From Raillietiella orientalis (taxonomy: Eukaryota), in contig JAYWIR010000091.1 in assembly GCA_036172245.1 (NCBI GenBank), positions 186,001 to 250,000 on the forward strand: a stretch of DNA of 64,000 nucleotides, given 5' to 3'. Below the pieces are notes generated by a model. That model ran no database searches. It was given only the letters and a program-made list of their open reading frames with translations, and had not been told where the DNA came from. The position numbers were made by a program, and so were the translations under genes. How positions within the stretch are numbered: the first letter of the stretch is position 1; each line of letters begins with the position of its first letter. Positions 2,560 to 59,560 of this stretch are shown here, one piece after another.

Positions 2560-4865
2560 TCTGATGTGGGCCACAGTCTTAATCAGCTCGGAACAGACAT
2601 ACGGTTTTCCAGGGCGAAGCATAGAAGCAAACCTTTTCCACGCTACCACATGGTTAAAGTTCCAACAAAGGAGGGTCTTAATATGCAAACCGAATTGTGG
2701 TGCGTCCGTTAGTGGGAGACAAGATGGACGGCTGGGGGTGGGAGCCCTTGCGGTCGCAATCGACTTGCGTAAATCATTCGACAGCGTCGACCAGAATCCC
2801 CTGCTGGAGCTTCTGAATTGCCTGGGCTTCCCGTCCCCTTTCTTGGCCTACCTGCGCTCCAGTAGGCGTGACGGGCTTATTAAAGTGATTTCCAGCGGGC
2901 ATACCGTGCACGGTGTACCGTTGCGACGCGGCATACGGCATGGAGACAGCCTGAGCCCTTGCTCTTAAGCACCTATTATTGTTTAGAGCCGAGAGCGTAC
3001 AGGGAGACTCTGACGCACCTGCCGCGCGATTATCTCGGTACGCCTGCGGTTTTGGCATACGCGGACGATTTGCTGCGGCTACTCCCTATGTCCACCCCGC
3101 CTTCGGCGGTGGAGGAGTTCTCCGACCTGTTGAGTCGAGGGAAAGAATTAACGATGAACAGGGCGAAGTCGTCCGTAATGCCAAGCGGATCGGCGTATGC
3201 ACGGCAACAGGACTGGGTCCCTTTGGGGATCCCCACGGTGAGGTAATTGAAAAACATTGTTGTGCTGTTCGGGGATTATTCCTCTGCGGAGGCGTCGTCC
3301 GCCTGCCTTTAGAAGGTTGAGGCGGCGATCGGTCCGTTTCACGACGGCAGGTTCTTCCTTCAGGAACGGACCACGGCGTAGAAAGCGTTTGCAGCCCCCC
3401 TTCTTCGCCCCTTGCTTTTTGATTCCTCCTTGTTAGGGGAGTTAAAGAAGTGAACGAAGCACTTCCTGAGGATCGCAACTTGGGGAAGAGGGAGGCCCGA
3501 GTACGTCCTGTGGACTTGTGTGCTTCGCGTCGTGATGGTGATATGAGCCTGCTGACGCTGGAGCGGCTAAAGCTTCAGCTCAATTCCGGATATTTGACTC
3601 TATGGCAAAGAACTGGTGCACCCCTTGGTGCGTCCCTGCACGTCTCCTTGTCGAGCTGGCCTCCGCTACGCGGAACTGCCTTCTACTTTGTACTCCGAAG
3701 AACCATCTGCCACTGCGGCATTCAGCTCCGCAGGGAGGCCAAACTCGTGAAGAAAAACACGGGATCGATCTTTGTACGAACGCGAAAGGCTCTGCCTGAC
3801 TGCAGGAAGCCCTTCGCAGGTTAGCGATGACTCAGGAGCAGATCACACAACACAAGCGAATAGCTCTGTTGGGGCCGCACGACCACCGCACGCTCCAAGA
3901 AATCGTCGTGGATCCCCGGAGGAGAGCGTGGCTACAAAAAACCTCCCTTGCTGCGGTACTGCCTACTTTTTGAGAACATCTAAGCAGCGACATCGCGGCA
4001 CAATGGGAGGCTACTCTCAAGATCGTCAACAGGGTATAGAAGATCGGGGAATGGAGAACGGGCGAACTGATCAACGCTGCGACCCCGAGTTTCACATCGC
4101 ACGGACTTTTGTGCTGGGGTGAGCTACTGGATGTTCCAGAGGAACCTCTTGAGTGGCACCCGATGCTCATGGACTCGCACACCCTCCCCATGAACGGGCA
4201 AGCGTCGTAACCGCTGGTGTTGCATTGGGGCCTCCCCTGTATTTCTGCCGACAGCACTGTACGCGGGGGGGTGTCAACCCCAATTGTGTCAGGTGCGGGA
4301 AGAGGAAATACCTCCTCCACCAGTTAGTGGATTGTGTTGCCCTCCGTCCCTTGTGGGAACGCCTTGCCACGACCCCTGGTATCCCTGATGGTAACCCGAG
4401 AGACGCTTTGCGCTTCCTCTTCGTCCATGACGCCCTGCCTCCAGCAGCCTCTCTTGCAACCCTGTGCTGCCTACACGGTATCGTCATAGCATCGAACAAA
4501 ATGATGGGAGGATTCAGTGACAGGAATGACATCGCTTATTGCGCCTGCTTCGTGAGTCTGGCGACGCGATTGCCCCATCTGACATCCGCCATGCAGCAAC
4601 AGTTTCGCGTTATCCTCAAGAGGATGACGGACTCTCCCAGCAAACAGTGATCTCTTCCAGCTGTCTCCCCGGTTTTTGTTTATTATTGGTTTTCATTTGT
4701 TTTAAGTACCCTTCCCCTCTCCTGCCGCGATCAACCGCCACCGTTTGCGCACCGGGAGCCCGGAAGGCTGGAAGTTTGTAGCGCGTGTCTGGAATACTGG
4801 TCCAGTCACAGTTTGTAGAGTTTTCTAGGGAACAACATGCGCCTGTGTACAACCGAGTTTCAATT
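2560..4865 (+). mobile_element. 5'-truncated non-LTR element H' (A-related ORF2: RT to C-terminal zinc finger, 3' UTR), degraded
   Basis: EQTYGFPGRSI, DLRKSFDSVD, GIRHGDSLSP, AYADDL (~3055), CVRCGKRKYLLHQLVDC, stop 4650; degenerate 3' terminal motif ~4831-4860. Confidence 0.88.
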
Positions 4866-5431
4866 GAGATTGCAAACGGTGACGCCTCTCAGGAATTCGC
4901 GAAGTTGTTCTTTTGTACCTGAGAGTTGCCACGCTCTGGAAGGCGGACCCTTATCGCGTGGGCGCATTTCGAATATCTACCGGAAATGGTCAGACAGCTG
5001 CGACGCAACTTTCCCTCGCTTTCCGACTCGTAGGCGCAGGTCGATGTCGACGAGGACGTGATCGATGCTGCTGACCGTTTCCGGAAGATATCCTGACAAT
5101 TTGCGGGTGCGCGTGGCAGGGTACAACTCTTTAACCGTCCGCTCCTGTGCGCGAGGATTATCCGATAGCAGGCCAAGATTGAAGTCTCCCGCTATCAGCA
5201 AAGAACTGCACACGTTCGCCCCCACCAGCCAGTCGCTCTTCAGAGTTTTCAGGAACGCCTCACGATTCTGGTATCTGGCAGGACCGCTGAGAGCGTACAC
5301 GTTTGCTAAGTCGAGGTCGATCGTGTGGGACCATCTGCGAAACAGATGGCCGACTCGAGCGGCTTCGTCGAAGCGCACGCCTTTCACGTCAGCGTCGAAC
5401 GCCGGCTTCATGGAATACGCAAAAAAAACAG
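4866..5431 (-). pseudogene. APE endonuclease fragment of a C-like element; host for H' (at 4866) and D1 (at ~5432)
   Basis: ORF 4977..5519: KPAFDADVKGVRFD...NVYA...LIAGDFNLGLL...SSIDHVLVD...LSDHFR. Confidence 0.9.
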
Positions 5432-7581
5432 GTTTTTCACAAGGGTGAGCCGGGGCTTTTATTATTAAAATTTTCGCAATAACAAAAATTTCATAATAAA
5501 GTCTTATATTTTTATTCAATTGTTTTTCTTTTTAGGACATTTAGAAATTCACGGTTCCTCTGTGGCACTTGTTCTTACCGACCCGGAGGCCGATATGGTC
5601 GATCGCACTGAAGCAAAGAAAAAAAAAACAAAAATAAAAGAAAAAAAGAAAAACTCCTGGAGGACAATGTTTTTGGGGAAGCGGAGGGAGGGAACGAATC
5701 ACGGTACGCTGTGAGAAGGCCTTTGCATCCGGTCACGGATGCAGACGAGTGCTGTCAAATAGTTCTGAAGTCAACGCCAACGGCAGGCCTTCTCCAAAGA
5801 GATAGCTGCCCAGTGGATGACATTCCGACTTTTCCTATCTACCCTTGACGCGGTCCACTTGTCGAGGATCCCGCGTATGCAACAGAGCACTGCTAGCCAC
5901 CCGGAAGCTGGCAAGGCGTCCTGCGCTAGGAGGCGTTGAAATAAAGTTTTCGTGTCGCCGACCGGAATGTTCAGGAGCGACGAAAAGTCGGTCCCACATC
6001 TCCCGGAGAGCGACACACTCTAGAATCAGGTGAGGGAAGGTTTCTTGTTCCCCGCACTCTGTACACTGGGCATACACACTTTCCGATGTCCAGTGACACA
6101 GGCGTGCTCTGCTTAAAAGTGCCCAATGGAGCAGAAACAACGCCGTCCCCTGCCACTGCAGGGGAAGGGTGCCGCTGTCCCAAGACGCTGGCTGCCACTT
6201 CACCTCCTCCGGAGGTATACCGAGCAGCGCGCTTCAGCGTAAAAGTCCGTTCATCGGGACACTCGGGGTACTAGCGTCCGCTAGTTCCCTCGGCGTCCAC
6301 GCCTTCAGTGATTTTTTCCTGCCTCCGATGAGGCAGAACACTTCCCACGATGCCTGTTGGTTGCTATCCCGAACTTCCCTGAGGAAGGGCAGCACTGAAG
6401 CAAGGGGGGTGAAGGAAGCTTACAGAATTTTCCGTGGGTTGGAAACGATCTTTTGGAGTGGCTGACCAGCGTGCCTCCCTCTGCGGAGGCAGGAGAAGTC
6501 CTCATTGCTGATGCCATTGATCTTCACCCATGCGGATACGGACAACTGAAGCAGGTAGTCCAGTCCGCTGGGATGCAGGAGATCCAAGAGTTGTCTCTCA
6601 TCAGAGCAATCAAATCCCGCAGCTGATATCCGCATTGGTTCAGGCTGCGTTCGTGGACTACTAGGATTGTGGTCAATCCGAAGCAGCCGGTTGCCCTGTG
6701 AGCGAGGAGTCTTGAAGGTGCACACCAGGGTGCGATGCAATACATTGTTAAAAATGCAAGTTTTCTAAATAACATCTGTCGCTACATGAGCTCCAACGTC
6801 AGGAGACCAAGTCCACCGTCCCTGCGTGGAGCGCACAAGTCTTTGAGCCGGACGCAACGCCTCCGGTTGCCTTAGAGGGCTTTCCGTATAAGGCCCCTAG
6901 TCCGTGTCCGAATTTATTACGGAGTAGGGCACACAAAAAGTAGGGGCGAAGGAGGGGGGGCGCGAAAGCGTTTCACACGGCGTCCCGTTCCTGCAAGTAA
7001 AACTTGCCGTCCCGGAACGGACCCATCGCCAATTGCACCTTTTGGGGACAGATCAGGCTTCTGCAGAGCAGAAGTCCTCCGAGGGAACGCTAAGGTACTT
7101 GATATACCCGCCCGTATGGATCCCCAAGCGAATCCAGTCCGACCGTCCAGCCCGCGTCGAATCCGTTAATAGTAACAACGACTTCGTCCTTGTTTCCTCG
7201 ATGCCTGTCACGCGGTGCAGCAACCCGAAGAAATCCTTGAGCGCCGATGCCGGTCTCGACCAGGGAAGCAGGAGCAGAAGGTCTTCGGCATAAGCCGACA
7301 CGGCAGGCGTGCCGGGGCACGAGCTCGGAAAGGTTGCCAAAGTCTCACTGTATGCAATCAGCAAGAACTCAAAGTAGATGCTGAAGAGCAGGAGGGTGCG
7401 GCTGTCAACCTGCCTAATGCCGCGACGAACCGGCACGCCAAACACGTGGCTGCGCTGAAATTGATATTCATAAAAGCGAAGCGCCAGCAGGAGCGAAGGT
7501 AGGACAGGGAGACGGCCGGCAATCCCAAGCGTGACAGAAGCTTCAAAAGCACTTCCTGGTCGACGCAGTCGAAAGCCTACG
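5432..7581 (-). mobile_element. Family D copy 1: 3' half from RT KAFD to the 3' terminus
   Basis: KAFDCVDQEVLL, GIRQVDS, AYAEDL, CTECGEQETFPHLILEC; terminus AATAAAAGCCCCGGCTCACCCTTGTG-AAAAA; colinear with 33851-36003. Confidence 0.9.
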
Positions 7582-10280
7582 CCTCCCGAGCGGGATTTCT
7601 CACGAATCCTGCTTCCGAAAGGCGCTTATGCGATCAAGGAAGAGGAAAAAAAGTCACTCGACGAGTCTTTCACGATGGGCGAGATCATCTCGGCCATCGG
7701 AAAGCTCAAGATGCGAAAGGCTCCAGAGAGGACGGCCTGTCCGCGGAGTTTTATCAAACTTTCACGGCTGAGCCAACTCCCTGGTACATCAACTCACCTT
7801 GCTGATACGCGAGACAGGTGACGTTCCCGCCTCGTGTCGTTCGGCAAAGGTGCGGCTTCTCCCTAAGGGAGGAGATCTGAGGAGCATGAACAACTGGCGT
7901 CCCATCACAATAGTGAATGCGGATGCCAAGTTGATAGCTAAGGTTTGGGGTTAGCGTTTGGGACGGGTTGCAAACGCCTTCATCAGCCCGGAACAGACGT
8001 ATGTTGTTCCGGGGCGAAGCATGGAGGCGAACCTGTTCCACGCTTCCACCTGGCTAGAGCTCCAACACGAAAGGGCTTGATGCGCACCGGGAATTCCGGT
8101 GAGTCCGTCAGTCATGCGACGGATGGTCGGATGGGGGAGGGAGCAATTGCGGTCGCTGTCGACTTGCGTAAAGCATTCGCCAGCGTCGACCAGAATCTCC
8201 TGCTGGAGCTTTTGGAACGCTTGGGATTCCCGGCCTCATTATTGGCCTATCTGCGCTCTAGCTGGCGCGATGCGCTAATCAACGTTACTTTCAGCGGGCA
8301 TACTGTTCACGGCGTGCCGGTGCAACGTGGGATCCGGCAAGGAGACAGCCTGAGACCCTTGCTCTTGAGTACCTACTTTGAGTTGGTACTGAAAGCGTAC
8401 AGGGAAACTCTGGCGCACCTGCCACATGAATGCGCCGGAACGCCTGCGGTTTAAGCATATGCGGACGACCTACTGCTACTGCTCCCTATGTCCACCCCGG
8501 CTTCGGCGGTCGAGAAGTTCTTCGACCTGCTGAATCGAGGAACCGGGCTTACGGTGAACATGGCGAAGTCGTCCGTGATGCCAGTTGGTGCGGCGTGGGC
8601 AGGGCAGCAGGACTGGGTCCGTTTGGGGATCCCCACGGTGAGGTACTTCAAGTACCTTGGTGTGCCGTTGTGGGACTACTCCCCTGCGGAAGCGTGGTCC
8701 GGCTGCCTTCAAAAAGTAGAGACGGCTATCGGCCCGTTCCGAGGCGGCAGGTTTTTCCTGCCTGAACGGGCCGCGGTTTGGAACATGTTCGAGGCTTCTC
8801 TCCTCCGTTCCCTGCTTTTTGTTTGCCCCTCCACAGAGAGGATCAAAAAGCGGACGAAGGACCTCCTCCGTATCGCCCTTTGGGGCAACAAGAGGTCCCG
8901 AGTCCGCTTGAAGGAGTTGTGCGCTCCGCGTCGGGACGGTGGTCTCGGCCTCCTGACATTGGAGCGGCTGGAACTGCAGCTCCAGTTCCGGATTTTGGCA
9001 CTTGTGCCGGAGTTGTGGTGCACCTGTTGGTGCGTCACTGCACGTCTCCTCCTTCAGCAAGCCACCTGCAATCCGGGACTTACGTCGTTTCTTGCACTCC
9101 ATCGAAGCCGCATCAACCGAATTAGGCTTCAGCTACGGAGGGTGGCTGCGCTGGCAAGGAAAAATCAAGGATGGAGCACCTGTCTCCCCGCGAACGGTTG
9201 TGCCTGGTTGCAGGAAACCGTTCGTTCGTGGGGACAGTTCGGCATGCAAACCTCCCATCAGGAACGAAGGTTCCTGTTTGGGTGTTACAGAAGTTGCACG
9301 CTCCGTGAGATCCTGGAGGATCCTAAGTAGAGAGCGGGGTCAGGAGGAACTTCCCTCGCTGCTGCGCTGGACTTCCTAGTGGAACAACAGGACAGCGATG
9401 TTGAGGCGAAGTGGGAGGTTACAATATAAATCTCCGGGAAGGAGAAGAAGCAGAGAGAGTGGAAGACGGGCCAGCTAACTGATGCAGCGACCCCGAGTAC
9501 GCCTCCTAATGGACATCTGCGCTGGGTAGCGCTGCTGGATGTTCCGATTGAACATCTGAAGGGGCCCCCGTTTCTTATGAACACTTCCATCCTCCCCCTA
9601 AAATGGTAAGAGTCGGCATTCCTGTTGCAGGACTGGGGACTCCTCTGCAACGCCCGTCGACACCACTGGACCTGGGGAGCGGTGGATCCCAATTGTGTAA
9701 GGTGCGGGGAACGGGATTCCCTCCCCCACCTCCTAGTGGATTGTGTTGCCCTTCGGCCCCTTTGGTTCCGCTTTGCCGCGGCCATCGGTATCCCTTGCAG
9801 CAACCCCAGGGACGCACTAAAAGCCTTCTTCGTTGCCGACGCCCTGCGGCCAGCGTCCTCGATAGCAGCCTTGTGCTGCTTTCGTGGGATCGTCGCCGCC
9901 TGGAGCACGGCGACGGGAGGACCTAGCGATATTGACGCCATCTAGGGCGCCTCCCAATTCCTGAGGAGGGCGTCGCGATGGCGCCACCTGGATGTTCATT
10001 ACAAACAAGAGCTTGCCAGCATCCTGAGAGGGATGATGCGTCCCCAGCAGCAACAGTGATCTCTTCCCGTTCCCTCCCACCCTTTGTTTTTTTTTTTTGT
10101 TTAGTTTTATTGTTTTTCTTCTTTCCCCTGCTGCCTTGGAGGACCGTACCGGTCTGGAAACCGGTAAATTGGCAGGCACCGTGGTTCTTAGCTTCTCGCT
10201 GGAGCATTGCCACAGCCATTAATAATTTGTTTACAAAGTTTATTTTTTTAATAAACGACCCGGAGAAATCCGGGTGAAAA
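7582..10280 (+). mobile_element. Family A copy 0: 5'-truncated (ORF2 RT to 3' end), antisense in the KAFD codons of D1
   Basis: NWRPITIVNAD, DLRKAFASVD, GIRQGDSL, AYADDL, CVRCGERDSLPHLLVDC; flanked by TCGAAAGCCTACG (7569-7581) and TCGAAAGCTTTACG (10281-10294). Confidence 0.9.
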
Positions 10281-10294
10281 TCGAAAGCTTTACG

Positions 10295-11734: not shown

Positions 11735-13329
11735 CATTTGGAGGACTTTTTTTCCTTCACCCCTTAAAGGGTAGTAGGAAAGCGCTTTCTTGTGTGTGGT
11801 GTTTTGTGTACATCGTAAGTGTCCAATGGCCACGACGCCAGAGGACACCGCGATGGAGGTGGGAGTGGGGGAGGCTAGTTCGCCCCACAGAATACTGGAG
11901 CAGAGGCAGCCGCCCCGGAATCATCCCCGGCCACGCCGAGGACATGGAGCGCCATGGTGGCCGCGCCCAGCGCAGAAGCCATGGCGGAGATGGCCGCATA
12001 CAAGGCCTCCGGGTACAAGCCATCGCTTGTCTACCAGGTAGGCAACTTGTTCGACGGCCGGACAGCGCACGCCTTCAGCAAAGCGTTGAAGGACGCGAAT
12101 GTTACAGAGAAGGATCTGGACGGCCTCTCCGTCCTCAGCGGCGGGCAGCGGGTCGAGGTGGTCTGCAAAGATGTCACCTTGGCTCACCGCCTAATCCATG
12201 CGCCGCTGAACGTAGACGGCCGCAAGATCCTGCCAGTATCCATGGACCGCTTCGTGGTGGTCCACATGACTGGCATCACCAGCCGCATGACGCGGTCAGC
12301 GGTTGGTGAGGAATTGAGAAAGTACGGTGAGGTGCACGCACTGTGGCCGAAACCCTCCATTTTCGACGGCTTCGATAGCCATTTTGGTGGGCAGGCTGCA
12401 GCGCGGGTCACCGTACGGGAGAATTGTGGGCTTCCCCACAAACTACAGGTGGCGCAAGAAAACGTCGACCTGTGGTATGTAGGAAAGCCCCGGTATTGCG
12501 GGCATTGTGATACCGTGGGACACCTACGTAAAAGGTGTCCCAATATACAATGCCATTTGTGCGGGAGCGGGGCCACGTTCGGCGCGTGTGTCCCAAACGC
12601 CCCCCCCCGGTTCCCCCTGCCGCGAAAAAAGCGCAGGAGAAACGTGCTTCAAAGGTCTCTAGACCTAAAGTAGAAAAGGGCCAGCACAAGCTGCCAACAC
12701 CTCAACCTCCGGAGCGTAAGCCGGAGGATAAACCTTCTGAAACGGTGGAAGGCGAAGAGGGATGGCAGCTTGTAGAGGCCAGAAAGCCGAGGAAACTCCC
12801 ACCCGCGGAGAGCAAAGAGCGCAAGACGGCCGGTAAGCCGAAGAAACCCGGTCCGCGCTCGAAAACTTTGCGCGAGTGCACGGTAGCACTGCAACGAATC
12901 GTCGTTCCCGAGATTGCCACCCGGAGCGTCGATCCTCCCCTTGCCGTTTCCGCTGCGCCCGAGGCTCGCGACAGCGAACCCTCTGTTTACACAGAGGGTG
13001 AGCCGCGCGACATAGCGGCGGTCGAAGCCGCGGACGCCGCGTTCGCGCAGGCGGCGGAGGAGCTCGCGGTCACGCTGGCCGAGCGTGAGAACCCCTCGCG
13101 CAAGGCCGTGCGAAGGCCGGCTTTGGCGAAGAAGGCCCCCAAAGGTGAGTTAGACCTGGGGGCTGGAAGCACATCCTCCTACTCGGAGGCACCCCCCAGG
13201 AAGTCGGAACGCAAGTCCCAGAAGCCCAGGAGGCGCCTCCCCTCCACCAGCGAGGAGGAGAAGACGGAAGCCGTCGCCAGCGTGGGAAATTCGGAGGAGG
13301 AATTCCCACGCTCGGAAGCCGTCGATCCG

Positions 13330-13495
13330 GCCACCCCCATGGAGGAGGGTGAACAGGGGGGTGAAGTCCCTCCTGCAGGCGCCGACCCTGAAAAGCCCGC
13401 CCCCATGGAGGAGGGCGAACAGGTAGGCGCGACTCCACCTGCGGGTGATCCGGCCGACGCGCCGGCACCGATGGAGGAGGGGGACCAGGTGCCTT
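13330..13495 (+). repeat. ~66-bp coding repeat (PMEEGEQ..., 3 copies) in family C ORF1 C-terminus
   Basis: PATPMEEGEQGG / KPAPMEEGEQVG / APAPMEEGDQV; related copies at ~44340-44495 (minus). Confidence 0.8.
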
Positions 13496-14048
13496 CAGCA
13501 CCTGACCCCCCTGCTCCACCTAGCGTCCCGCCCCAGCAGGTGGCGGACGCCGCACTGCCATCTTCCCAGGAGTAACACCTGGGCTCGCCAGTCGCCGTCG
13601 GATTCGCGCGGCCTGTTAAAATGTCAACGGGCTGCGCGACAACGGTAACAGGCGAGATACAGCCGACACCCTGCGGGAGTTCGACCTGGCCCTGTTGCAG
13701 GAGATCCACGTGATCACCGCGGCAGACGTCCAGGAGATCGAGACGATCGCGGGGGGTCGGCTGTACTGGCAACGCGGCATCCGCACCACCTGCGGGGTCG
13801 CGTTCTTCGTGAAGCCGGCCATCGACGCTGCCGTGAAGGGCGTGCGCTTCGATGGCGACGGTCGGGTCGGTCAGCTGACTCTCGGCTGGTCCGACTTGAT
13901 CGATCTGATCGTCACGAATGTGTACGCCTTAACCAATCAAAAGGGATACAGCAACCGTACCCGGCTGCTTGAATCCCTGAAGCGCGACTGGCTGGCGAAC
14001 ACGAGCGTGCGGAAAGCTCACCTGATACCGGGAGATTTCAATCGAGTG

Positions 14049-14056
14049 CGGACGTG
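14049..14056 (+). promoter_or_regulatory. CGGACGTG 5'-terminal motif (DPE-like putative internal Pol II promoter element); representative copy
   Basis: Also at 10305-10312 (+) and, on minus, ~29020 (TGGACGTG), ~33833, ~37854, ~43767, ~46146, ~55577; matches DPE consensus RGWYV. Confidence 0.65.
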
Positions 14057-14121
14057 TTTTTCTTCGCTCTCGTCTCCGTGCTTTCATCCGCTTCATCTTG
14101 GCGTCGTACATTTTGACGACG

Positions 14122-16038
14122 ATGTCGACCCAACTTGAAGCTACTGAAGTTGGAGGAACAGCATCCGGATATGCAATCGCGGAACCGACGGCCGCCTCCA
14201 CTTCGTCTTTCTCGCCAATGCAGAGGAGTTTTGCTGACGTTGCTGCCACAGCAGCCGTCAAAGGGAAACCACTCGACGAGTCGGAGTTGCGGGCATACGT
14301 AGCCCAAGGCTATAGACCTGCTCTCCGATATAAGGTGAGTGGTTTTCTTTCTGCGCGCGACGGGAATGAGTTCAACGATGAACGGACCCGTGATGACGTG
14401 CGGGAGGAGGACCCTCTCGCCATTATGCCCGTAAAAGACATGGGCTATTTCAAAGTGCGTTGCAAAGACGCTGCACTTGTGCAACGCTTGCTGCGCACAC
14501 CGTTGTCGATCCGTGGCCAGAAGGTCTTCCCGACCGCCATGGACGACTCATTTGTGGCGGAGATTTTCGACATCGTGTCGGAAATCTCCGATATTGATAT
14601 TCGGAACGCTTTGCGAAATTCGCCACGGTCCATGCGCTGTGGAGGGTGCGTAGCAACCTCAAGGACTTCCCGTCCATACACAGCGGAGTCGCTGGAGTCC
14701 CGCTTACAATGCCTGATCGCCGTCGGCTGCACAGCAAATTACAGATGAAAGACACGGTCGTTCACCTGTGGTTCGTGGGCAAAGAAAGAACGTGCGAGCA
14801 ATGCTGGAAGGAGGGGCATTGTATGGATGAATGTCTCTCTGGAAAAAGCCGTTATTGCAAACTATCCGGGCACCAATTGTAAAATTGCCCGGATCTTTTG
14901 CAAAAAAAGGCAGCCGCGGAGCTCCATCTTAAAAAACAAAGCGCGGATAAAAAGAAAAAATTTGCGAAAAACCTGGAGACCCCACGGCAGAAATTCCTCA
15001 AAAACGCGAGGCGGAATATCGCCACAAAGTAGCAGGAAACCTCGCACGCGAAGCCCTGCGCGCCCCCTCTCGCGGCAGGTAAGCCGCAAAAGAAAGAGTG
15101 CGGAGAATCCGGGGCAATGGTAAGTCTCCCAAGGCGCAATAGCTGTCCTTCCCAAGCACGCCCGGCTCTTTCAGAGTTCGAGCAACCGGCGGGGACGTCA
15201 ATGGACAACGGCGGTAAGGACACTTCCAGTACCGTTAGATCCAATCCTTCACCTCCTGCAGTGACTGAGAAGCGCAAATCGGGTAAGAAGGGTTGTGCAG
15301 TGTCGACTTCGAAAGTCGGCAAAAAAGAATCCGCGTCGCGATCCAACACCGCGAAAGCGGAGAAAAATCTCACGCTGTCGCAGTCGGAGAGCAAGCTCTC
15401 GACTGGCGCGGATGCCATGCCAACGAAGGGATTAAAAGCCCTTCCGAAAGCAGCGTCCATGACGAGCGTGTCGGAGCCATCGAAAGTGCTCCCGTTTAAA
15501 GACACGGATGGCTTGAAAGATGGCAATGGAGCAGAATCTCCATATACGGCGCCACGCGAAGTGAGGAACCGTAATGAAGTAAAGAAGACTTCAGCAAAGC
15601 TCCCTCGTGCAACTGCGCGTGAGCACGCTGAGAACGCGCGCGCCGGGAAAGCAGCCGTCACCAAAAGCGATGGAGACGTAAAAATACAACAGGACAGCTG
15701 TCAATCCAGCAGAACCTGTCACTACTTCCCGGAAGGCCGAAACTCGATCGAACATGCGTCTGTCGAATTCCGAAATGGATTCCGTCCCGATCACCGAGAC
15801 GAGGACAACTCGTTCGAAAGCGTGTGCGCGCCGATCAAAAGTAGGCAGCCAGGCAACGCGAGCCGCGAAGCCACGCGAAGTCTCCACGAAACCCGACGGG
15901 GTTAAGCCTGGCGTGGATGCATTACATGCATGCAGCACGACAGAGGACGGTGGCGAACGTCCCCTCCAGCCAGTCGTGCAGCTCGCCGTCTGCTTGCCGG
16001 ATAAAGCGAGCAAAAAGCCGCCGCCTTCCCAGCAGTAA
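14122..16038 (+). pseudogene. B1 ORF1 (gag-like, two CCHC knuckles, long low-complexity tail), frameshifted
   Basis: MSTQLEATEVGG...CEQCWKEGHCMDEC...YCKLSGHQL...PVVQLAVCLPDKASKKPPPSQQ* spread over several frames. Confidence 0.9.
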
Positions 16039-19000
16039 TGCGGGGAATGGCGTCTTCTCGTCGTCTGTCCGTAACGTGTTGAAACGTGAACGGACTACAG
16101 AACGATGAGAAGAGACGATTAGTAGCCAACGCCCTGCGCCCCTTCGACCTCGCGCTCCTGCAGGAGATTCACGTAATCTCCGACGAGCAGAGAGCCGAAA
16201 TCGAGGAGCGCGCAGGCGAAACGCTACATTGGCGGTGCGACGGCGCACACACGTGCGGCGTCGCGTTCCTCGTAAGAGGAAAAATGGCGGAAGCGGTGCG
16301 TAGTGTTCGTTTCTATGACGACGGACGGATAGGCCAGCTTGTCATAAAGTGGTCCGATTCCATCGATCTCGTCGTTACGAACGTCTACGCGCCGAGTGGA
16401 TCTCGCTACCTCGGAGAAAGAGTAGCTTTCTTTGGTGAGGTGCAGAGTTACTGGCTCAAAAACTTTGGTTTCCAAGTGGCGCACCTCGTTGCTGGGGACT
16501 TCAACGTCCGCCTGCTCTCCGACGATTGGAGCCGCCCGAAAGAGCGCGCGCTGCCCATCGAGATGTGCGCGTCCGTGCACGCCGCCAACTTGATGGTCAG
16601 CAAACCTGGAATGGAAAGATCGCTCGATCACGTTTTCCTCGATGAAAACCTGCATTCGCGTGTGGGAGGAGAGTTAGATTGTTGACTAGGCTTTCTGACC
16701 ACCACAGGTTGGAGTTTGAGATCCTTCCGCCAGGCAGGGTACCTCAGTTGCAAAACTGAAGGATGCAGGCGGATTGGCTTAGCCAACCGGTGGCTGCGGA
16801 GCATCTACGTGGATACCTCCGAGGCTTTGCCATTCAAGAACTTGCGGACTGGGACGATCTCAAAAGATCTGTCCGCGAGTTCTGCTGCCAATTCCCCTTG
16901 CACCGGCTTCCACGCGGTTTTGGAGAGGGTGTGGCCAACAGTAGAGACTTTCTGCAGGCCCGCACGTGTTCGAGACGCGCCTATGTCGGGCGTCTGGCAG
17001 AGTACAAGGCGAGGTCCGAGCACCAGGTCTGGCAGTCCGGAGCAGCATGCCTGTTGGACGACAAGGGCCAGGAATGTTCGGCCCCAGCCGAAGTACGCCG
17101 CATTGTGAGACGCTATCACTCCTCTCTGTACGCGGAATCCCCGACGAAGGATATTCTTTCTGAGATACTCCTGTCTCAGGATGCTCGTGTTGTCGGCGAA
17201 GAGGAACGCGAACGTCTCGACGAGCCCTTCACGGCGGATGAATTTTCGTGCGCAATCGTTCGGCTGAAGAGACGAAAGGCGCCAGGCGAGGATGGGCTCC
17301 CTGCAGAGTTTTATCAGTGCTTTGCAGTGGAGCTCATTCCCTTGTTGCTGAAACTCGCGACGCTGATGAGTGAATCCGGGAATGTCCCTGATTCCTCCCG
17401 CTCAGCGAAGGTGCGTCTCATGCCGAAAGGCGTAGACTTGCGTCAACTTAACAACTGGCGTCCGATCACCTTGTTGAACTCGGACCTCAAGTTGTTTTCC
17501 AAGCTGTGGGTCGAGCGGTTAGGAAGTTTCGCGGAATCTGTGGTGAGCCCGCAACAAACCTGCGCGGTTCCGGGACGATCCCTGGAGGCGAACGTCATTT
17601 TCGCGCGTACATGGATGCAGCTGCAGGAAGTTGTGGCGCAGCAAAGCCAGGCTGCTGCGAAAGTCACTGCCGCAGGCAAGAAGAACAGGCGCCGACGGCA
17701 GGAGGGAACGCCAGGTGCCTTGTCGGTGGCAGTCGATCTCCTGAAGGCGTTCGACTGCGTAAACCAGAAGCTGCTTTTGGAGCTTATGGAACGCCTTAAG
17801 TTCCCGGTGCAACTCCTGCTGTATTTGCGCGCGAGCTGGCGCCACGCGCTAACCTGCATTACTTTCAGCGGCTGCCGCGTGTATGGTATTCCCGTTCGTA
17901 GCGGCATCCGTCAGGGCGACAGCTTAAGCCCGTTGCTCTTCAGCATCTTCTTTGGGTTGGCGCTAAGAGCATACAGGCTGATGCTGTCTTACTTGCCAAG
18001 CTCCTGCCCGGGAACGCCTGCCGTGGCCGCGTACACTAATAACCTGCTTCTTCTGCTCCCCATGTCCACCCCGGCGTCCAGTGTCGAGGATTTCTTCGAC
18101 CTGATTCGTCGGGGAGCGGGCGTGAGCGTGAACAGAGAGAAGAGCGTGAACGTTCCTGTGGGTACGTCGTCGGAGGGGCACTCCGACTGCATCCGCCTGG
18201 GGATCCCTACTGGCGGGTACTTTGAGTACCTTGGCGTTCCGTTGGGCTTTCGGCGCAGCCGAAGCGTGGGCGGACTGTCTTCAGAAAGCAGAGTTGGCCA
18301 TCAGCCCGTTCTTTAACGGCAAGTTTACCTTGAAAGAACGGGCGACTATTTGGAACACCATCGTGGCCCCCCTCCTCCGTCCCCTGTTCTTTGTTTTGGA
18401 CCCCCCCTATGCGGCAAAACAGCGGGCTAAGCGCCTGCTCAGGAACGCTCACTGGGGTCCAGCGAGATCCAGGATCCGCCTTAAAGATTTCTTAGCTCCG
18501 CGTCTGGATGCTGGTTTGGGTATCTTGACAATGGAGCGAATCGGACTGCAGGTGCAGTTCCGACTGCTGGCACTGTGTGCCCAGCAATGGACATCCCCCC
18601 TGTGTGTGCAAGCCCGCATTCTCCTGCGGAGATGCGCCGGCAGCGGAGGATTTCTCTCGCTTTTGCCGGGTACTCAATACAGGAAGCGGGGTTTCGGGTT
18701 TCCATTGCGGCAGTTGACCGCACTTCTGGAAGCACACCCTTGGATGTCCTGCCGCCCAATGAACTTTGAAGCTTGGCGGCAGGAGTCTGTTGAATCCTGG
18801 GCGGCGTTCCAAGGAATACGCCCTGAAGATCTTCGCCCCCTGCGCCAATTTTTTCCACGATCCTTGGAAGAAGTACTGCAGGACGAGGTGAAGTTTTCTA
18901 CCCTTGCTGCCACGCCTCTTGCCGCAGCGCTGTCTGCCCTCAGGGCAAAAAACGACAGTTACCAACCGGCGAGGTGGGAGGTTTCCTGCACGATAGCGGG

Positions 19001-19628
19001 AAGAACCAAACTCCTTGGCACCTGGAAGACAAGTGAGTTGGCGGACGCCGCCACTCTTCGTGTTACTGCAAAGGGACTCCTCCGGTGGACAGAAGAACTT
19101 GCTGTCACCCCCGAAGAACTTGTAGTCCCTCCACAGTGTATGGACAGTTCGCTGCTCCCCCTTGCTTGGAAACAAGCCGTTCTGCTTTTCGTTCACTGGG
19201 GTTTTCAGTGCAACGAGCGTTGGCATCGTGACTCCGGGGGACTTGCGTCTGAGAATTGCGTTCGGTGCGGATCGACGGAGTCGATTCCGCACCTACTTCT
19301 GGACTGCGGTGTCCTACAAGGACTGTTGCGTAGGCTGGCAACAGCACGAATGCATCCCGTGGACACCGCAAGAGACTTGCTGCGACGATTCTTCACGCCG
19401 AGCGGGCTTTCACTAAGCGCAAGGATTGCAACCATCGGTTGCATACGCGCGATAGTTTCCGTCCGCCAGGCGTTGGTAATCAACGGACGGCACCAAGAGG
19501 TAATCAGCAAAGCATCCTTCTACATGGGAGCATCCGCTAGATGGCCTCATTTGACAGAGGAGACAAAGAGTAATCTCGCCGCAATACACCGCCGGTTGAC
19601 ACACCCTCATCAGCGGACAACCCGGTGA
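16038..19628 (+). pseudogene. B1 ORF2 (APE endonuclease - RT - CCHC), few disablements; YADD altered to YTNN
   Basis: ORFs 16086..16685, 16763..18316, 18222..19628: QEIH, NVYAP, GDFN, LDH, KAPGEDGLP, NWRPITLLNSD, DLLKAFD, QGDSLSP, CVRCGSTESIPHLLLDC. Confidence 0.95.
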
Positions 19629-19911
19629 TCATTGCTCTACCCTCCATAAACTAAATATGTATTTTCTTTTTACACCCGCATCCCCATAGGCTCCGGAACA
19701 TGTTAGGTGCTCATCGTATAAATCCCCGTGAGTACGGAGCCTAACCAAAAACCCGTTACCCTTCGCTCCAGTTTTTGATTTTTGTTTGTTTCCCCTCATT
19801 CCTCCCGCGCTGCGAGCGGTTTGTTTACCAGGCCTGCGTGCCGGTAATTTTTCTATGTTCTCTGTCGTTCTGTTGGTTAAGGACATTGTCCCTGACCAGT
19901 TTATTATTATT

Positions 19912-19941
19912 AATAAACGCCCCGGCGTGACCGGGTGATAA
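19912..19941 (+). terminator. 3'-terminal AATAAA plus CCCGG..CCGGG stem-loop; representative copy
   Basis: Recurs at the end of every 3'-intact element, in several lineages with otherwise dissimilar 3' UTRs. Confidence 0.75.
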
Positions 19942-22900
19942 ATTTCAATGTCCGCCTGCTAACAGGTGAGCCGGAAACACATGTGAACGCGATGAACGGG
20001 TTGTGCGCCACGATGCGTGAGCGCAACTTGTTCGCGTGTGAGAGAGGAATGGTCCGCAGCATCGACCACGTCTTCCTGGACGCTGACCTGTGTTCACGAG
20101 TCGGCAAACGGGGGAGGGTTGCGTCGACGTTGTCGTTCCATTCCCGGTTAATTTTCGAGATGCGGCCTCGCGACAAAGGACCGCCATCCAGGGATTGGCG
20201 TCTGCCGGGGGACTGGACGCGACTCTCAGGTGCGAAGGAAAACCTTCGCGAATACCTGAGAGGCGTCACGCTCCGGAATCTCCAGGACTGGGACCTTTTT
20301 AAAGAATCGGTCCGCGAGTTCTGTGAGAAGTTCCCCCTGGATCGCCTGCCCCCCGGATTCAACAAGGGTGCTCGCAACCATTGGGCCTATTTACAGGCTG
20401 GTAGGTACGCGAGAACCTTTAATGTTCGTCGCCTGGCCGAGTACCGCGCCGGGGCCGAACGCCAAGCCTGGCAATCCGGGTCGGCCAGCTTGCTGGACGA
20501 CCAAGGCCGGGAATGTTCGTCCCCGGCGTCGGTACGGCATCTCGTGCGGAGTTTCTATTCCTCCCTTTACGCCAGGGAGCCCCCGGATCGAAACGCCTCT
20601 CGGCGCTTGCTTCCGGATGGCGCCCCGGCAATAGGGGAGGAGGAGATGAAAAGCCTCGAGGAGCCTTTTACCACCGGCGAAATTCTCGCCGGTATCAAAA
20701 GGCTCAAGAGGCGTTAAGCTCTAGGGGAAGACGGCTTGCCCGCGGAGTTCTTTCAGAGCTTCGCGGAAGAGCTGGCACCCCTGCTGCTTAAGTTGATCAG
20801 GCTGATCCGAGACGAAGGCGATGTTCCCGCCTCGTTTCGGTCAGCCTGAGTGAGGCTCCTTTTGAAAGGGGGAGACCTCAGGGATTTAAAGAACTGGCGT
20901 CCGATCACGATCGTGAATACGGACGGCAAGTTGATAGCAGGGCTATGGGCTTCGCGTCTGGGGCAGGTGGCAGAATCGGTAATTAGCCCGGAGCAGACTA
21001 ATGCTGTTCCCGGGCGAAGTATGGATGCCAACCTCTTCTTCGCAAGCACATGGGTGCACTTGCAGGGAAGAGAAAAGAAAGGGATAGGGAAAGTCGGCAA
21101 CCCCACATTGGGGCCGCAAGCCGGGCTGGGAAGGGACCCCCGGGCGGGGAAGGGGGCCCTAGCGCTCGCAGTCGATCTCCACAAGGCGTTCGACTTTGTA
21201 GACAAGGAACTCCTCTTGGAGCTCCTGGGTCGCATGGGCTTTCCACCCTCCCTGATTTCCTACCTGCGCTCTTGCTGGCGGAATGCGATAATTACGGTCT
21301 CTTTCAGCGGTCACAAGGTGCATGACGTGCCGGTGCGGCGGGGCATTAAGCAGGGAGATAGCCTCAGCCCCCTGCTATTCAGCACCTACTTTGATTTGGT
21401 GCTGAGAGCGTACAGGGTGACTCTAGCCCCATTGCCGAGCTCGTGCCCCAGCACGCCCGCCGTTACAGCGTACGCCGACGATCTTCTGCTCTTGTTGCCA
21501 ATGTCCACCCCGGCAAAGGCGGTCGGAGACTTCTTCGATCTGCTCAGTCGCAGGAACTGACTGCAGGTTAACAAGGCGATGTCGTCGGTTGTGCCAATAG
21601 GAGCGGCGTTGGCAGGGCAGCAGGACTGGGTCCGTGATGGGATCCCCACGGCGAGGTGCTTCAAGTACCTTGGTGTGCCGTTGGGGGACTACTCCCCTGC
21701 GGAAGCGTGGTCCAGCTGCCTCCAAAAAGTCGAGACGGCGATCGGCCCGTTCCTGGAAAGCAAGTTTCACTTGCCGGAACGGGCCGCGGTTTGGAACGCC
21801 TTCGCGGCCCCCATCCTCCGCCCTTTGCTTTTTGTTTGCCCCTTCACCGTGGAATCCAAGAAGAGGACGAAGGACCTCCTCCGTATCGCCCTTTGGGGCA
21901 AGGGGAGGCCCCGAGTCTCACTGAAGGACTTGTGCGCTGCGCGTTGGGACGGCGGTCTTATCCTCCTGACGCTGGAGCGCGTGGAGAAGCAGCTGCGGTG
22001 GCGAACCCTCGCCATCGAAGCGAAGATGTGGAGCACCCCTTGGTGCACTCCGGCCCGCCTTCTGGCCAGGCATGTGTCCCGGTGCGATGGACTCGCGTCT
22101 TTTTTTTCTGAGCCGTGGCCCGAAGATGCAAAGATGCGGCCTACTGCTCGGGCGCATGGCAACATTGGCCAAGGAGAACAGCTGGATGGTTTGCTGCCCA
22201 GCCAACTCCCCCGCCTGGCTGGAGGAGAATATTGGAACGTGGGCAGTAGTTAACCAGAGAAGCCACGAGACGTGGAATCGTCTCCCATGCAGCCCCTACG
22301 CCCGCTGCACGCTGCGAAATCTCCTGGAGAGTCCAGCAAGATGCACGTGGGCAGAGACGACCTGCCTAGCTACGGCGCTGCCCTTCCTCAGGAGGCACTT
22401 CACAGCAGACGGACGCCAAGGTGGCAAGTCTCCTGCTGCATCGAGGGACGCGAAAAATTGATCAGCGGCTGGACAACAGGAGAACTAGCCGACGCCACGA
22501 CCCAGAGCGTCCAGCCGCGAGGATTATTAAGATGGGACGAGCTGCTCGCTATCCCCAGGGATGAGCTGAAGTGGCCCCCGGTGATGAAAGAATCCAGGAT
22601 CCTGCCCCTTAAGTGGCAAGAGTCGGCGTTGCTTCTGTTGCACTGGGGTCTACCCTGCAACGCGCGCCGCTTCCACTGCACGAGGGGAGCTGTGGATCCC
22701 GCGTGTGCCAGGTGCGGGGAGCGGGAGTCGCTTCCCCACCTTATTGTGGATTGTGCTGCCCTCCGACCCCTTTGGGAACGGTTTGGGACGACCCTCGGGC
22801 TACCTACAGGCAGCACACCCAGAGACGTTCTTCGGCCCCTCTTCGTGAAGGACGCACTGCAGCCAGCCGCAGCCATCGCAGCCTTGTGCTGCATCCGAGG

Positions 22901-23283
22901 TATCGTGGCGGCATGGAGCGACGCCAACAACGAAGGAGTGGGTCCACAGGGGAAAGATGTCATCCCGTATGCCCAACGCTTCTTGCGGAGAGCTGCCGGA
23001 TGGCCCCAACTGGGGAATATGCAGACTGACCTCGAGGGCTTCGTTCGACGAATGGGCCCTCCCCACAGCGACCAGTGATCCCTTCCCTGCCCTCCAACTT
23101 CTTTTTGTTTGTTTCTTGTTATTTTTCTCTTTGTCTTATCCCCATCTGCCTTCCCTGTCGGAGAGTGCGACGCCGGGCTGCGTTCCGTTGTCCCGACAGG
23201 TCGCGTGTTTACGGCCGTGGTGGGGCCTCGTACCACGCATATAGAGTTTACAAATAAACGCCCCGGGCGTACCCGGGTGACAA

Positions 23284-23517: not shown

Positions 23518-26299
23518 GCCGGGAACGTTCGTCCCCGTCTGCGGTACGGAATCTCGTGCGGTGTTTTTATTCCTCCCTTTACGCCAAAACACCACACGAA
23601 CAAGACGCCTCGCGACGAATGCTCATGAGTGGTACCGTGGGGATAGGGGAGGAGGAGAGAGAAAGCCTCGATGAGCCTTTCACGACAGGTGAAATTCTCG
23701 CCGTTAACAAAAGGCTCAAGAGGCGTAAGGCGCCAGGGGAGGACGGCTTGCCCGCAGAGTTCTTTCAGAGTTTCGCGGAAGGGCTGGCACCCCTGCTGCT
23801 TCAGCTGACAAGGCTGATCGGAGACGAAGGCCATGTTCCAGCCTCGTTTCGGTCAGCCAGAGTGAGGCTCCTTTCGAAAGGGGAAGACTTTAGAAATTTG
23901 AACGACTGGCGTCCGATCACGATTGTGAACACGGACGCCAAGTTGATTGCCGGGCTGTGGGCTTCGCGATTGGGGCAGGTGTCCAATTCCATAATTAGCC
24001 CGGAGCAGAGTTACGCTGTTGCCGGGCGAAGTATGGAGGACAACCTCTTTTTCGCGAGCACGTAGATGCACGCGCAGCGGAGTAATAAAGAAGGGAAAGG
24101 AAAAATTTTCAACCTTACTTAAGGGCTGCCAGTGGGACAGGGTAGAATCCCTCATGCGGGAAAGGGGGCCTTAGCGATCGCAGTCGACCTCCATAAGGCA
24201 TTCGACTGTGTTGACCAGGAACTCCTATTGGAGCTCCTGGTTCGCATGGGCTTCCCACCCTCCTTGATTACCTACCTGAGCTTTTGCTGGCGGAACGCGA
24301 TAATCTCAATTACTTTCAGTGGAAAAAAGGTGTTAGGCGTGCCAGTGCGGCGGGGCATAAGGCAGGGAGACAGCTTCAGCCCCCTGCTTTTTAGCACCTA
24401 CGCTGAGCTGGTGCTGAGAGCGTACAGGGTGACTTTGGCCCCCTTGCCGAGCTCCTGCCCCGGCACGCCAGCTGTAGCGGCGTATGCCGACGATCTTCTG
24501 CTCCTCTTACCTATTTCCACCCCGGCGAAGGCAGTCGGAGATTTCTTCGAACTGCTTAGCCGTGGGGCGGGATTACAGGTTAACAGGTCGAAGTCGTCAG
24601 GGTTGCCAGTTGGAACGACGTGGGCAGGGCAGCAGGACTGGGTCCGTCTTGGGATCCCCACATTGAGGTGCATCAAGTACCTCGGTGTGCCGTTAGAGGA
24701 CTTCTCCCTTGCGGAAGCGTCGTCCAGCTGCCTCCAAAAAGTCGAGACGGCGATCGGCCCGTTCCTGGAAGGCAAGTTTCACTTGCCGGAACGGGCCGCG
24801 GTTTGGAACGCCTTCGTGGCCCCCATTCTCCGCCCCTTGCTTTTTGTTTGCCCCGCCCCCGTGGAATCAAAAAAGCGGACGAAGGACCTCCTCCGCATAG
24901 CTCTTCGGGGCAAGGGGAGGCGCCGAGTCCCACTGAAGGACTTGTGCGCTCCGCGTCGGGACGGCGGTCTTGGCCTCCTGACACTGGAGCGCGTGGAGAA
25001 GCAGCTGCGGTGGCGAACCCTCGCCATCACAACGAAGATGTGGAGCACCCCTTAATGCACCTTGGCCCGCCTCCTGGCCAGCCGTGTGTCCCGGTGCGAT
25101 GGACTCGCGTCGTTTCTTCTGAGCCGTGGCCGGAAGATGCGAAGATGCGGCCTACTGCTCGGGCGCATGGCAACATTGGCCAAGGAGAACAGCTGGATGG
25201 TTTGCTGCCCCGCCAACTCCCCCGCCTGGCTGGAGGAGAATATTGGAACGTGGGCAGCAGTTAACCAGAGAAGCCACGAGACGTGGAATCGTCTCCCATG
25301 CAGCCCCTACGCCCGCTGCACGCTGCGGAATTTCCTGGAGAGTCCAGGAAGATGCGCGTGTGCAGAGACGACCTGCCTAGCTACGGCGCTCCTCTTCCTG
25401 AGAAGGGCACTTCACAGCAGCCGAACGCCAATGTGGCAAGTCTCCTGCTGCATCCAGGGACGCGAGAAGTTGATCAGCGTCTGGACAACAGGAAAACTGG
25501 CAGACGCCACGACACCGAGCGTCCAGCCGCGAGGTCTAAGAAGATGGGGCGAGCTGCTGGCCATCCCTATGGATGTGCTGAAGTGGCCTCCGTTTCTTCA
25601 GGAATCCAGGATGCTGCTCCTTAAGTGGAAAGACTCGGCGTTGCTGTTGTTGCATTGGGGGTTACCCTGTAATGCACGCCGCTCTCACTGGACTAGAGGA
25701 GTTGTGGATCCTGCTTGTGTCAGGTGCGGAGAAAGGTAATCGCTCTCCCACCTTATTGTGGACTGTGCTGCCCTTCGTCCCCTTTGGGAACGATTTGGGA
25801 CGATCCTCGGTCTTCCTACGGGCAGTTCCCCTACAGACGTTCTTCGGCCCCTCTTCGTGAAGGACGCCCTGCATCCAGTCGCAGCCCTTGCAGGCTTGTG
25901 CTGCGTCCGAAGCATCGTGGCGGCATGGAACGACACCAACAAGGAAGGAGTGGGTCAACCCGTGAGGGATGTCGTCCCATATGCCCAACGCTTCTCTTGG
26001 AGAGCTGCTGAATAACCCCAACTGGGGAATGCACAGATGGACCTCAAGGGCTTCCTTCAACGGATGGGCCCTCCTCTCAGCGAACAGTGATCCCTTCCCT
26101 GCCCCCCAACCTCATTTGTTTGCTTGCCTTCTTGTTTTCATTTTTGTTTTTCCCCATCCCCTTTCGCTGCCGGGGAGTGCCACGCCGGGCTGCGTCCCGG
26201 CGTCCCGGTAGGTCCCGTGGGTAAGGCCGTGAGCGGGGCCTGGTACCGCGATTGTAGAGTTTTTTATAAATAAACGCCCCGGGAGTACCCGGGTGGCAA
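23518..26299 (+). mobile_element. Family C copy 3, 5'-truncated (RT to 3' end)
   Basis: KAPGEDGLP, DLHKAFD, AYADD (~24480); colinear with ~20510-23283; terminus AATAAACGCCCCGGGAGTACCCGGGTG-GCAA. Confidence 0.92.
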
Positions 26300-29033: not shown

Positions 29034-29046
29034 CCAGGTTTCGGCG

Positions 29047-37867: not shown

Positions 37868-37875
37868 ATTGAAAT

Positions 37876-59000: not shown

Positions 59001-59560
59001 CCATTGCACTTTTGCTCTTTCTCGCGAAGTATCCATTTGCAGTGAGCTGCAAATTCAGGGAATGGAGCCGCACATCATTCCAATTTCCTGGTTTCAGAGG
59101 ATGACTAAGAGGATTCGCACATTTCATTATGGTGAGGCACTTTTTACTCTGTGCTGTTTTCATGGCAACCAACGTCGGAATTAGAAGGCGAATGTTTTCC
59201 TTCGATCTCATTCATTATGTGGTCAAAATTAACAACTTTTAAGGGTTGAAATCAATTAGAAATCAGGACATTTCAACACTGCACTTTTGCTCCTTCTCGA
59301 GAAGCATTCATTTGCAGTGAGCTGCAATTTCACGGAGTGGAGCCGCATATCATTCCAATTTCTTGGTTTCCGAGGATGACTAAGAGGATTCCTACATTTC
59401 ATTTGAGTGGTTCACTTTTGAATCTGTGCTGTTTTCATGGCAACCAGTGTCGGAATTAGAAAGCGAATGTTTTCCTTCGATCTGATTCACGATGTGGTCA
59501 ACATTTACATCTTTTGTGAGTTGTTTTGTGGGTTGTTATCAATTCGAAATCAGGAGATTT
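56041..59560 (+). repeat. Satellite array, left arm, ~275-278 bp monomers of two subtypes
   Basis: TTCGATCTGA-like anchor at 56271, 56547, 56825, 57101, 57377, 57653, 57929, 58207, 58375 (short unit), 58651, 58926, 59201, 59476. Confidence 0.97.

Follow-up and report, generated by a model that had tools for sequence, protein, structure and literature searches.

What marks the 3′ end of an L1-type long interspersed nuclear element (LINE) that ends without a poly(A) tract? The question is raised by a 64,000-nucleotide (nt) stretch of the Raillietiella orientalis genome (assembly GCA_036172245.1, contig JAYWIR010000091.1, positions 186,001 to 250,000 of the forward strand; hereafter the window), in which 12 LINE termini end in a shared cassette of about 30 nt that combines a poly(A) signal, two GC-rich arms able to pair as a hairpin and a tail of a few As. 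Relaxed template choice that depends on poly(A) is the textbook behaviour of L1-type elements, and lineages with a defined 3′ tag are few. Such lineages are relevant to the question of whether the L1 group was stringent ancestrally, and one tag that spans sister families with diverse targets separates template recognition, which is common to them, from target recognition, which is family-specific. A guild of this kind would also offer a compact system for testing how a LINE with an apurinic/apyrimidinic endonuclease (APE) fixes the first copied nucleotide; its practical value is modest pending an active copy and RNA data.

Defined 3′ ends are described for several groups of LINEs. A monocot L1 lineage has a conserved 3′ stem–loop (PMC3472496, PMC3747384), and the ORF2 protein (ORF2p) of ZfL2, a member of the L2 clade, binds the stem–loop at its own 3′ end (PMC4176376). 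In R1Bm, the annealing of a target-derived 3′ extension of the RNA to the target is a real mechanism (PMC7265360, PMC6530143), and annealing of such an extension is also described for R2Ol (PMC6530143). Here we show that the cassette is a conserved sequence at a fixed position in about eight diverged lineages, weigh whether it acts as a hairpin recognized by ORF2p, and find that it does not itself encode the insertion target.

A common cassette ends diverged LINE lineages

A reading of the sequence alone had listed 12 termini with the cassette, and all 12 carry it (Table 1). A covariance model built from the 12 copies and run unfiltered on both strands of the window recovered these 12 and no further match up to E = 10, and the strict pattern AATAAA-N(0–12)-CCCGG-N(1–12)-CCGGG matched six times against 0.01 expected, a count that none of 100 shuffles reached. 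A second model, trained on the six copies of families B, G1 and G2 only, ranked the six held-out termini directly after its training copies (H, E = 6.9e-5; E, 3.7e-4; Fb, 0.013; I, 0.039; Fa, 0.083; J, 1.1), and its sole other matches were two at E = 9.3. Approached from the coding side, tblastn located 13 C-termini of the second open reading frame (ORF2), and the cassette lies 161–330 nt downstream of 12 of them. The thirteenth, ending at 4629 (+), is followed by a decayed look-alike only (about 4832–4866); the TTTCAAT after it was considered as carried-over target and rejected, because it is partly host sequence.

By similarity over their last 400 nt, the copies form the pairs B (93.5% identical), G1 (81%), G2 (93%; G1 against G2, about 70%) and F (74%) and the single copies E, H, I and J, and ORF2 segments of different lineages are 34–62% identical by tblastn. 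When the last 400 nt of different families are compared by blastn, similarity is for the most part restricted to the terminal 26–45 nt, which bears out the earlier observation that the cassette ends otherwise dissimilar untranslated regions (UTRs).

Domain order and the closest solved reverse transcriptase (RT), rather than a tree, suggest that the carriers are L1/Tx1-like LINEs of the APE+RT type. An ORF1 with CCHC knuckles has weak Pfam matches (0.0063 and 0.021). In ORF2 an N-terminal APE endonuclease (Exo_endo_phos, 4.3e-10 at 16083–16685) precedes the RT domain (RVT_1, 3.8e-16 and 3.4e-15), for which the closest solved structure is human LINE-1 ORF2p (4e-37), with R2 proteins next (1.9e-11). 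The C-terminal Cys-His motif of L1/Tx1-type elements has the form CX2-3CX7HX4C, and CX2CX7HX4C is present upstream of eight of the 12 cassettes (Pfam zf-RVT is weak, E = 0.042). The nearest database proteins are 21–28% identical and have the architecture PF03372+PF00078(+PF13966).

Read 5′ to 3′, each terminus consists of a U-rich run, AATAAA, (C/A)G, one variable position (N19), CCCGG, a loop of 4–6 nt, CCGGG, TG and NNAA, followed by the target-site duplication. The hexamer is intact in 11 of the 12 copies (AATCAA in J), U-rich sequence precedes it in all of them, and its last A stands 24–25 nt before the last base of the element. Identity between families is highest for AATAAA plus 2 nt (0.93), intermediate for the 5′ and 3′ arms (0.77 and 0.72) and lower for the loop (0.56) and N19 (0.29). 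The description of a conserved stem around a varying loop thus holds loosely, with the stem lost in Fb and J. The tails are as first listed, either NNAA or 4–7 As set directly against the target; no copy has a long poly(A), and the longest A tract is about 7. In E, B1, G1a and G2b, AAUAAA(C) can pair with the U-rich run (GUUUAUU...) upstream to give a second, AU-rich hairpin beside the GC-rich one (about 10228–10256, 19895–19919 and the 23276–23259 region upstream of the cassettes); this pairing may be trivial A/U complementarity.

No Rfam family reached its gathering score anywhere in the window, and the cassette pattern had no match in metagenome contigs. Ten matches in genome contigs, all bacterial, were set aside as unrelated, being about the number expected by chance and having neither RT homology nor an NNAA tail. 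A search of the open-access literature, a scope that leaves out Repbase and subscription journals, found no description of an AATAAA–hairpin–TGNNAA end for L1/Tx1-type elements.

Element ends lie flush with target codons

We mapped the 3′ junctions by comparison with uninterrupted host copies, and at every junction that could be placed in this way the tail adjoins the target directly. In E, GTGAAAA is followed by TCGAAAGCTTT, the antisense of KAFD codons (2 junctions). In B, GTGATAA is followed by ATTTCAAT; B and J are both inserted at ATTTCAA(T/C), in GDFN codons (3 junctions), the flank of J being ATTTCAAC, a target of the same GDFN type. G1 and G2 end in GTG(A/G)CAA before CGCCGAAWCC, the antisense of GFGEG codons (four 3′ junctions and one 5′ junction); the G1 cassette at 23253–23283 is flanked by CGCCGAATCC, and the final T of one G2 copy perhaps belongs to the target. 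The remaining junctions read GTGAGAA(A) then TCTCCTG in H and GTGAAAA(A) then CC... in F. The target-site duplication measures 8 bp in B; lengths of 11 bp in E and 13 bp in G were read from the target copy between head-to-tail elements. At least three families are site-specific for codons in other LINEs.

F, H and I occupy sites that no second copy shares, and for I there is no host copy for comparison. The two F copies lie at unrelated host positions (5433 (−) and 36003 (+)), both with flanks that start CC, so site specificity in F seems lower than in B, E and G.

Downstream of three of the 12 termini there is a single target copy (11, 13 and 8 nt; 10281–10291, 29034–29046 (−) and 37868–37875 (−)) and then the 5′ end of a same-family copy, an arrangement of head-to-tail tandems. 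The 5′ end of the second E copy starts at 10292; the G2 cassette at 29047–29076 (−) is followed by the 13-nt target copy CGCCGAAACCTGG (29046–29034) and the 5′ end of another G2-type copy; and ATTTCAAT lies between B2 and the 5′ end of a further B copy. Such tandems are expected from renewed insertion into a duplicated target, or from dimers that arise by another route.

The sequence-only reading had raised the possibility of family-specific homing imposed by target-derived extensions of the transcript; the geometry does not imply it. One cassette serves at least three different targets, so the cassette itself does not encode the target. We saw no systematic microhomology between the tails and the pre-insertion targets, and endonuclease specificity would be the simpler source of target choice.

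The same junctions bear on the mechanism proposed for such homing, namely that transcripts read through into the duplicated target copy and that this extension pairs with the nicked bottom strand, thereby determining where the cDNA starts, with the hairpin acting as a binding site or being incidental. Read-through would explain the exact junctions, the tail abutting the target at every host-checkable site and the lack of poly(A) at all 12 ends. Because at least three families are site-specific, their donors always have a target copy downstream, and the tandems place just one target copy before the next element. Annealing would be invisible in on-target copies, since the annealed stretch there belongs to the recipient DNA itself. 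The spacing of 24–25 nt between hexamer and end, from which read-through had been deduced, was confirmed; however, it is also the usual range for cleavage, and a hexamer kept in 11 of 12 copies at this canonical distance argues for cutting at the element end, with at most a few target nucleotides included. The tails all end in AA whatever the first target base (T, A or C), as a poly(A) junction would. F has the same precise end at its two sites and carries no foreign bases: at the 3′ junctions of F (twice) and H, we found no donor-derived bases, the first flank bases matching the uninterrupted host. Finally R2, a model for annealing of this kind, is co-transcribed with its host gene and is not known to have an AAUAAA or other poly(A) signal of its own. 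We consider read-through priming unlikely.

Evidence for and against a hairpin

Folded alone, 10 of the 12 cassettes form the expected stem, and the two that no longer do, Fb and J, are old copies. RNAalifold, applied to the model-fitted alignment, gives the same five pairs. Lineage-specific changes in G1, E, Fa and B2 preserve or extend the helix: a sixth G:C pair and a loop of 4 nt occur in each G1 copy; an A:U extension closes a GAAA loop in E, whose cassette alone folds into a 7-bp stem (−13.2 kcal/mol, z −3.95); Fa in its own fold has U:A where the others have G:C; and B2 has G:U where B1 has C:G.

Several results weigh against reading the arms as a functional stem. Covariation, the check that the sequence-only reading itself had suggested, is not significant: the score of 0.161 compares with a shuffled mean of 0.124 and is reached by 110 of 500 shuffles, the paired cells amount to 86.7% against 85.1% in shuffles, only one of 60 cells in the ungapped alignment is changed on both sides, and RNAalifold gives a covariation term of +0.3. 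With arms that hardly differ between copies, the test has little power. E and Fa are out of register in the ungapped alignment, so that their compensatory cases are post hoc, as is the extra G1 pair. Only one hairpin in 12, that of E, clearly beats its shuffles (the other z-scores range from −1.64 to +0.45). Given 30 nt of upstream sequence, six of the 12 copies have the hairpin in their minimum-energy fold; given 150 nt, four have it in their best fold, and the pair probability in B1 is 0.02. C-to-T decay alone would produce the G:U pairing seen in decayed copies, and every copy examined is old and interrupted by stops or frameshifts. Because the arms are conserved as sequence, a sequence-specific role is allowed equally with a structural one; CCGG is self-complementary, and the arms therefore also form a direct repeat of CCGG.

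These observations bring in the possibility that the arms serve as a sequence motif in DNA or RNA, with a pair of CCGG half-sites 9–10 nt apart that a protein binds or that are used on the cDNA or second strand, with the hairpin a by-product of the palindrome. The near invariance of the arms, the non-significant covariation and the frequency with which the hairpin is out-competed in longer folds all fit such a motif. A loop of 4, 5 or 6 nt, however, alters the spacing of the half-sites, G1 and E lengthen the helix instead of keeping that spacing, and Fa swaps G:C for U:A on both arms. We regard the sequence motif as highly improbable.

The firm result is a conserved sequence that could form a hairpin and that stands at a fixed distance from the element end. 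The proposal of a stringent, ORF2p-recognized stem–loop gains from this fixed geometry and from conservation across UTRs that cannot be aligned, and loses from the covariation result and from the dominance of the hairpin in the folds of some copies only. Stringent recognition is nevertheless plausible, given the fixed stem-to-end distance, the missing poly(A) and the conservation across about eight lineages with ORF2 only 34–62% identical.

A proposed module for 3′-end formation and template marking

In eukaryotic 3′ processing, cleavage usually occurs 10–30 nt from AAUAAA. The hexamer lies within this distance of the end, so cleavage is expected at the terminal As of the element. One could stop here and regard the cassette as a 3′-end processing module only, which defines or protects the mRNA end before foreign sequence begins, while the RT recognizes something else or starts at the junction of RNA body and poly(A). 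The best-conserved part of the cassette is indeed AATAAA plus 2 nt, with U-rich sequence upstream and a canonical distance to the end, and pairing of the hexamer with the U-rich run in several copies would suggest regulated access. Processing alone, though, leaves the missing A tract of the integrated copies unexplained. Retroposed mRNAs with the same signal geometry keep their A tract. So do relaxed L1s (PMC3747384). As a complete account, processing is quite unlikely.

The reading that we favour, and judge to be evenly poised between right and wrong, adds template recognition to processing: the cassette would be a common 3′ module made of a poly(A) signal and a putative ORF2p-recognized hairpin of the stringent type, which sets the start of the cDNA. 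Its carriers are a guild of related APE+RT LINEs of L1/Tx1 type, nested in one another. To judge from the geometry, AAUAAA and the upstream U-rich run would direct cleavage and polyadenylation at the terminal NNAA; the element end would then be the mRNA cleavage site, and the terminal As the start of the poly(A) tail. The GC hairpin of 5–7 bp between signal and end, followed by UG, would probably be bound by ORF2p as a template mark and would place the first copied nucleotide 6 nt beyond the stem. Of any poly(A) tail, just 0–2 As would be reverse-transcribed, the rest staying uncopied. The expected product is the observed arrangement, in which every copy ends in stem-TG-NNAA flush with its target-site duplication. 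Target choice would be set elsewhere than in the cassette, most simply by the endonuclease.

A more elaborate version of this scheme, which we rate as very unlikely, would have the common tag couple 3′-end processing with target-primed reverse transcription: the hairpin, lying between AAUAAA and the cleavage site, would let ORF2p seize the nascent 3′ end and begin the cDNA at that very point. This would be joined either by an inherited address, made of a few target-derived nucleotides that late cleavage leaves on the RNA and reinforcing the homing of each family, or by cross-mobilization, in which families that differ in endonuclease specificity mobilize one another's RNAs through the common tag.

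Comparison with known elements

As in mammalian L1, the AATAAA stands shortly before the end, and among solved structures the RT is closest to human ORF2p. Mammalian L1 depends on a long poly(A), which it retains and recognizes in a relaxed manner (PMC3747384), whereas the elements here have a few As at most. The closest parallels within the L1 clade are the stringent LINEs, the monocot lineage 1a element LINE1-1_ZM and Chlamydomonas L1-1_CR (Ohshima 2012/2013), in which a conserved 3′ hairpin sequence is read as a mark for template recognition by the RT (PMC3472496, PMC3747384). In the cited accounts, the plant stringent L1s show compensatory changes and have partner short interspersed nuclear elements (SINEs) that share their tails (PMC3472496, PMC3747384); here, in contrast, the arms are invariant and the window contains no partner SINE. 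L1-1_CR ends in poly(A) (PMC3747384), unlike the present termini, which have no A tract and a hairpin placed between AATAAA and the end.

In the L2 clade, UnaL2, ZfL2-1 and ZfL2-2 have a short, near-terminal 3′ stem–loop that is bound by ORF2p and needed for retrotransposition, and they lack poly(A) (PMC4176376, PMC3747384). The missing poly(A) is common to the two groups; a near-terminal hairpin and its binding by ORF2p are known there and are candidate properties here. The L2-clade LINEs belong to another clade and end in short repeats (TGTAA) that serve template slippage (PMC4176376, PMC3747384), whereas here a single TG-NNAA follows a poly(A) signal immediately upstream. R1Bm and R2 (R2Ol) resemble the present families in being site-specific and in having exact 3′ junctions that lack poly(A), but they belong to the R1 and R2 clades, R2 having a restriction-like endonuclease, and they target ribosomal DNA (PMC7265360, PMC6530143). 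The elements in the window instead have a conserved AATAAA within cleavage distance of the end.

The Tx1 clade (Tx1L, Keno, Kibi, Koshi and Tx1-Mar) comprises L1-related elements of the APE type with fixed targets, several of them inside other transposons (PMC4494074). The SINEU families that, by inference in the same source, Tx1-Mar mobilizes all have a 3′ polyA tail (PMC4494074), unlike the ends described here. The targets in the window are coding motifs of sister LINEs, and the likeness to the Tx1 clade rests on domains and targeting, not on a tree. Stringent L1 lineages, L2-type tails and the precise ends of R1 and R2 are thus already described; new, within the open-access literature searched, is the combination of a hairpin wedged between poly(A) signal and end with a module that is common to sister families with different targets.

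The nest and its individual termini

Positions 1–56042 of the window are a nest of LINE fragments (GC 0.53–0.63), and positions 56043–64000 are satellite in units of 275–278 bp (GC 0.40). The nest ends abruptly at 56042, within the N-terminal region of an RT, and the satellite blocks lie in opposite orientations that switch near 59560.

Table 1 Cassettes, target copies and a decayed candidate in the window
Feature	Position	Strand	Details
Family J cassette, decayed	758–788	−	AATCAA; 3′ arm ACGAG; run of 6–7 A
Possible 13th terminus, strongly decayed	4832–4866	+	Recognized by neither model
Family F cassette, copy Fb	5433–5463	−	3′ arm decayed (CCTTG), stem lost; A-run tail
Family E cassette	10250–10280	+	AATAAA, CG, A, CCCGG, loop, CCGGG, TG, AAAA
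E target copy	10281–10291	+	TCGAAAGCTTT, antisense of RT KAFD codons; junction recurs at 33864–33854 (−)
Family B cassette, copy B1	19912–19941	+	Element 14043–19941; tail ATAA
B1 target-site duplication (8 bp), 3′ copy	19942–19949	+	ATTTCAAT, GDFN codons of host endonuclease; 5′ copy 14035–14042
Family G1 cassette	23253–23283	+	6-bp stem CCCGGG/CCCGGG; loop CGTA; tail ACAA
Family G1 cassette, second copy	26269–26299	+	Loop AGTA; tail GCAA; target as in first G1 copy
Family G2 cassette	29047–29076	−	Tail GAA(T)
Family H cassette	31805–31835	+	3′ arm CCAGG, one C:A mismatch; tail AGAA(A)
Family F cassette, copy Fa	35973–36003	+	Arms CCTTG/CAGGG, U:A for G:C, one U:G; 6-nt loop; A-run tail
Family B cassette, copy B2	37876–37905	−	Arms CCGGG/CCTGG, pairing kept by G:U; tail ATAA
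Family G2 cassette, second copy	49078–49107	+	Tail GCAA; target as in first G2 copy
Family I cassette	54439–54469	+	Arms CTTGG/CCGGG, two U:G; TA for TG; tail ACAAA

The only close relative found outside the window is P0015, a 619-residue RT fragment (JGI source) that is 56% identical to the family B RT. Loci related to P0015 were distant only, at 22–35% identity, apart from one 28-residue match at 61%, and a search of the ESM Atlas returned only generic RVT_1, zf-RVT and Exo_endo_phos clusters.

A stretch of 6.9 kb, comprising B and 1 kb of upstream host, occurs twice (13033–19949 and 37868–44793 (−); 92.8% identity), either as a segmental duplication or because sister hosts were hit separately. 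The G1 element into which B1 is inserted (about 11741–23283; edges 11735–11745 and 23284) has ORF1 of an E copy as its 5′ flank and antisense ORF2 as its 3′ flank; these are not contiguous in one host, which suggests rearrangement or irregular 5′ joining.

The 5′ ends of the families also have a motif in common, GAG(C/T)GGACGTG(T/C)TTT, located 5–25 nt inside the 5′ junction (10304 and 14048 (+); 46154, 43775, 37862, 33841 and 29028 (−)). Complementarity between this motif and the cassette, judged by eye, was too gapped to be retained. With the 5′ motif and the 3′ cassette, both termini are conserved and the interior UTRs differ; the 5′ motif may be a promoter or initiator, or a 5′-end recognition element.

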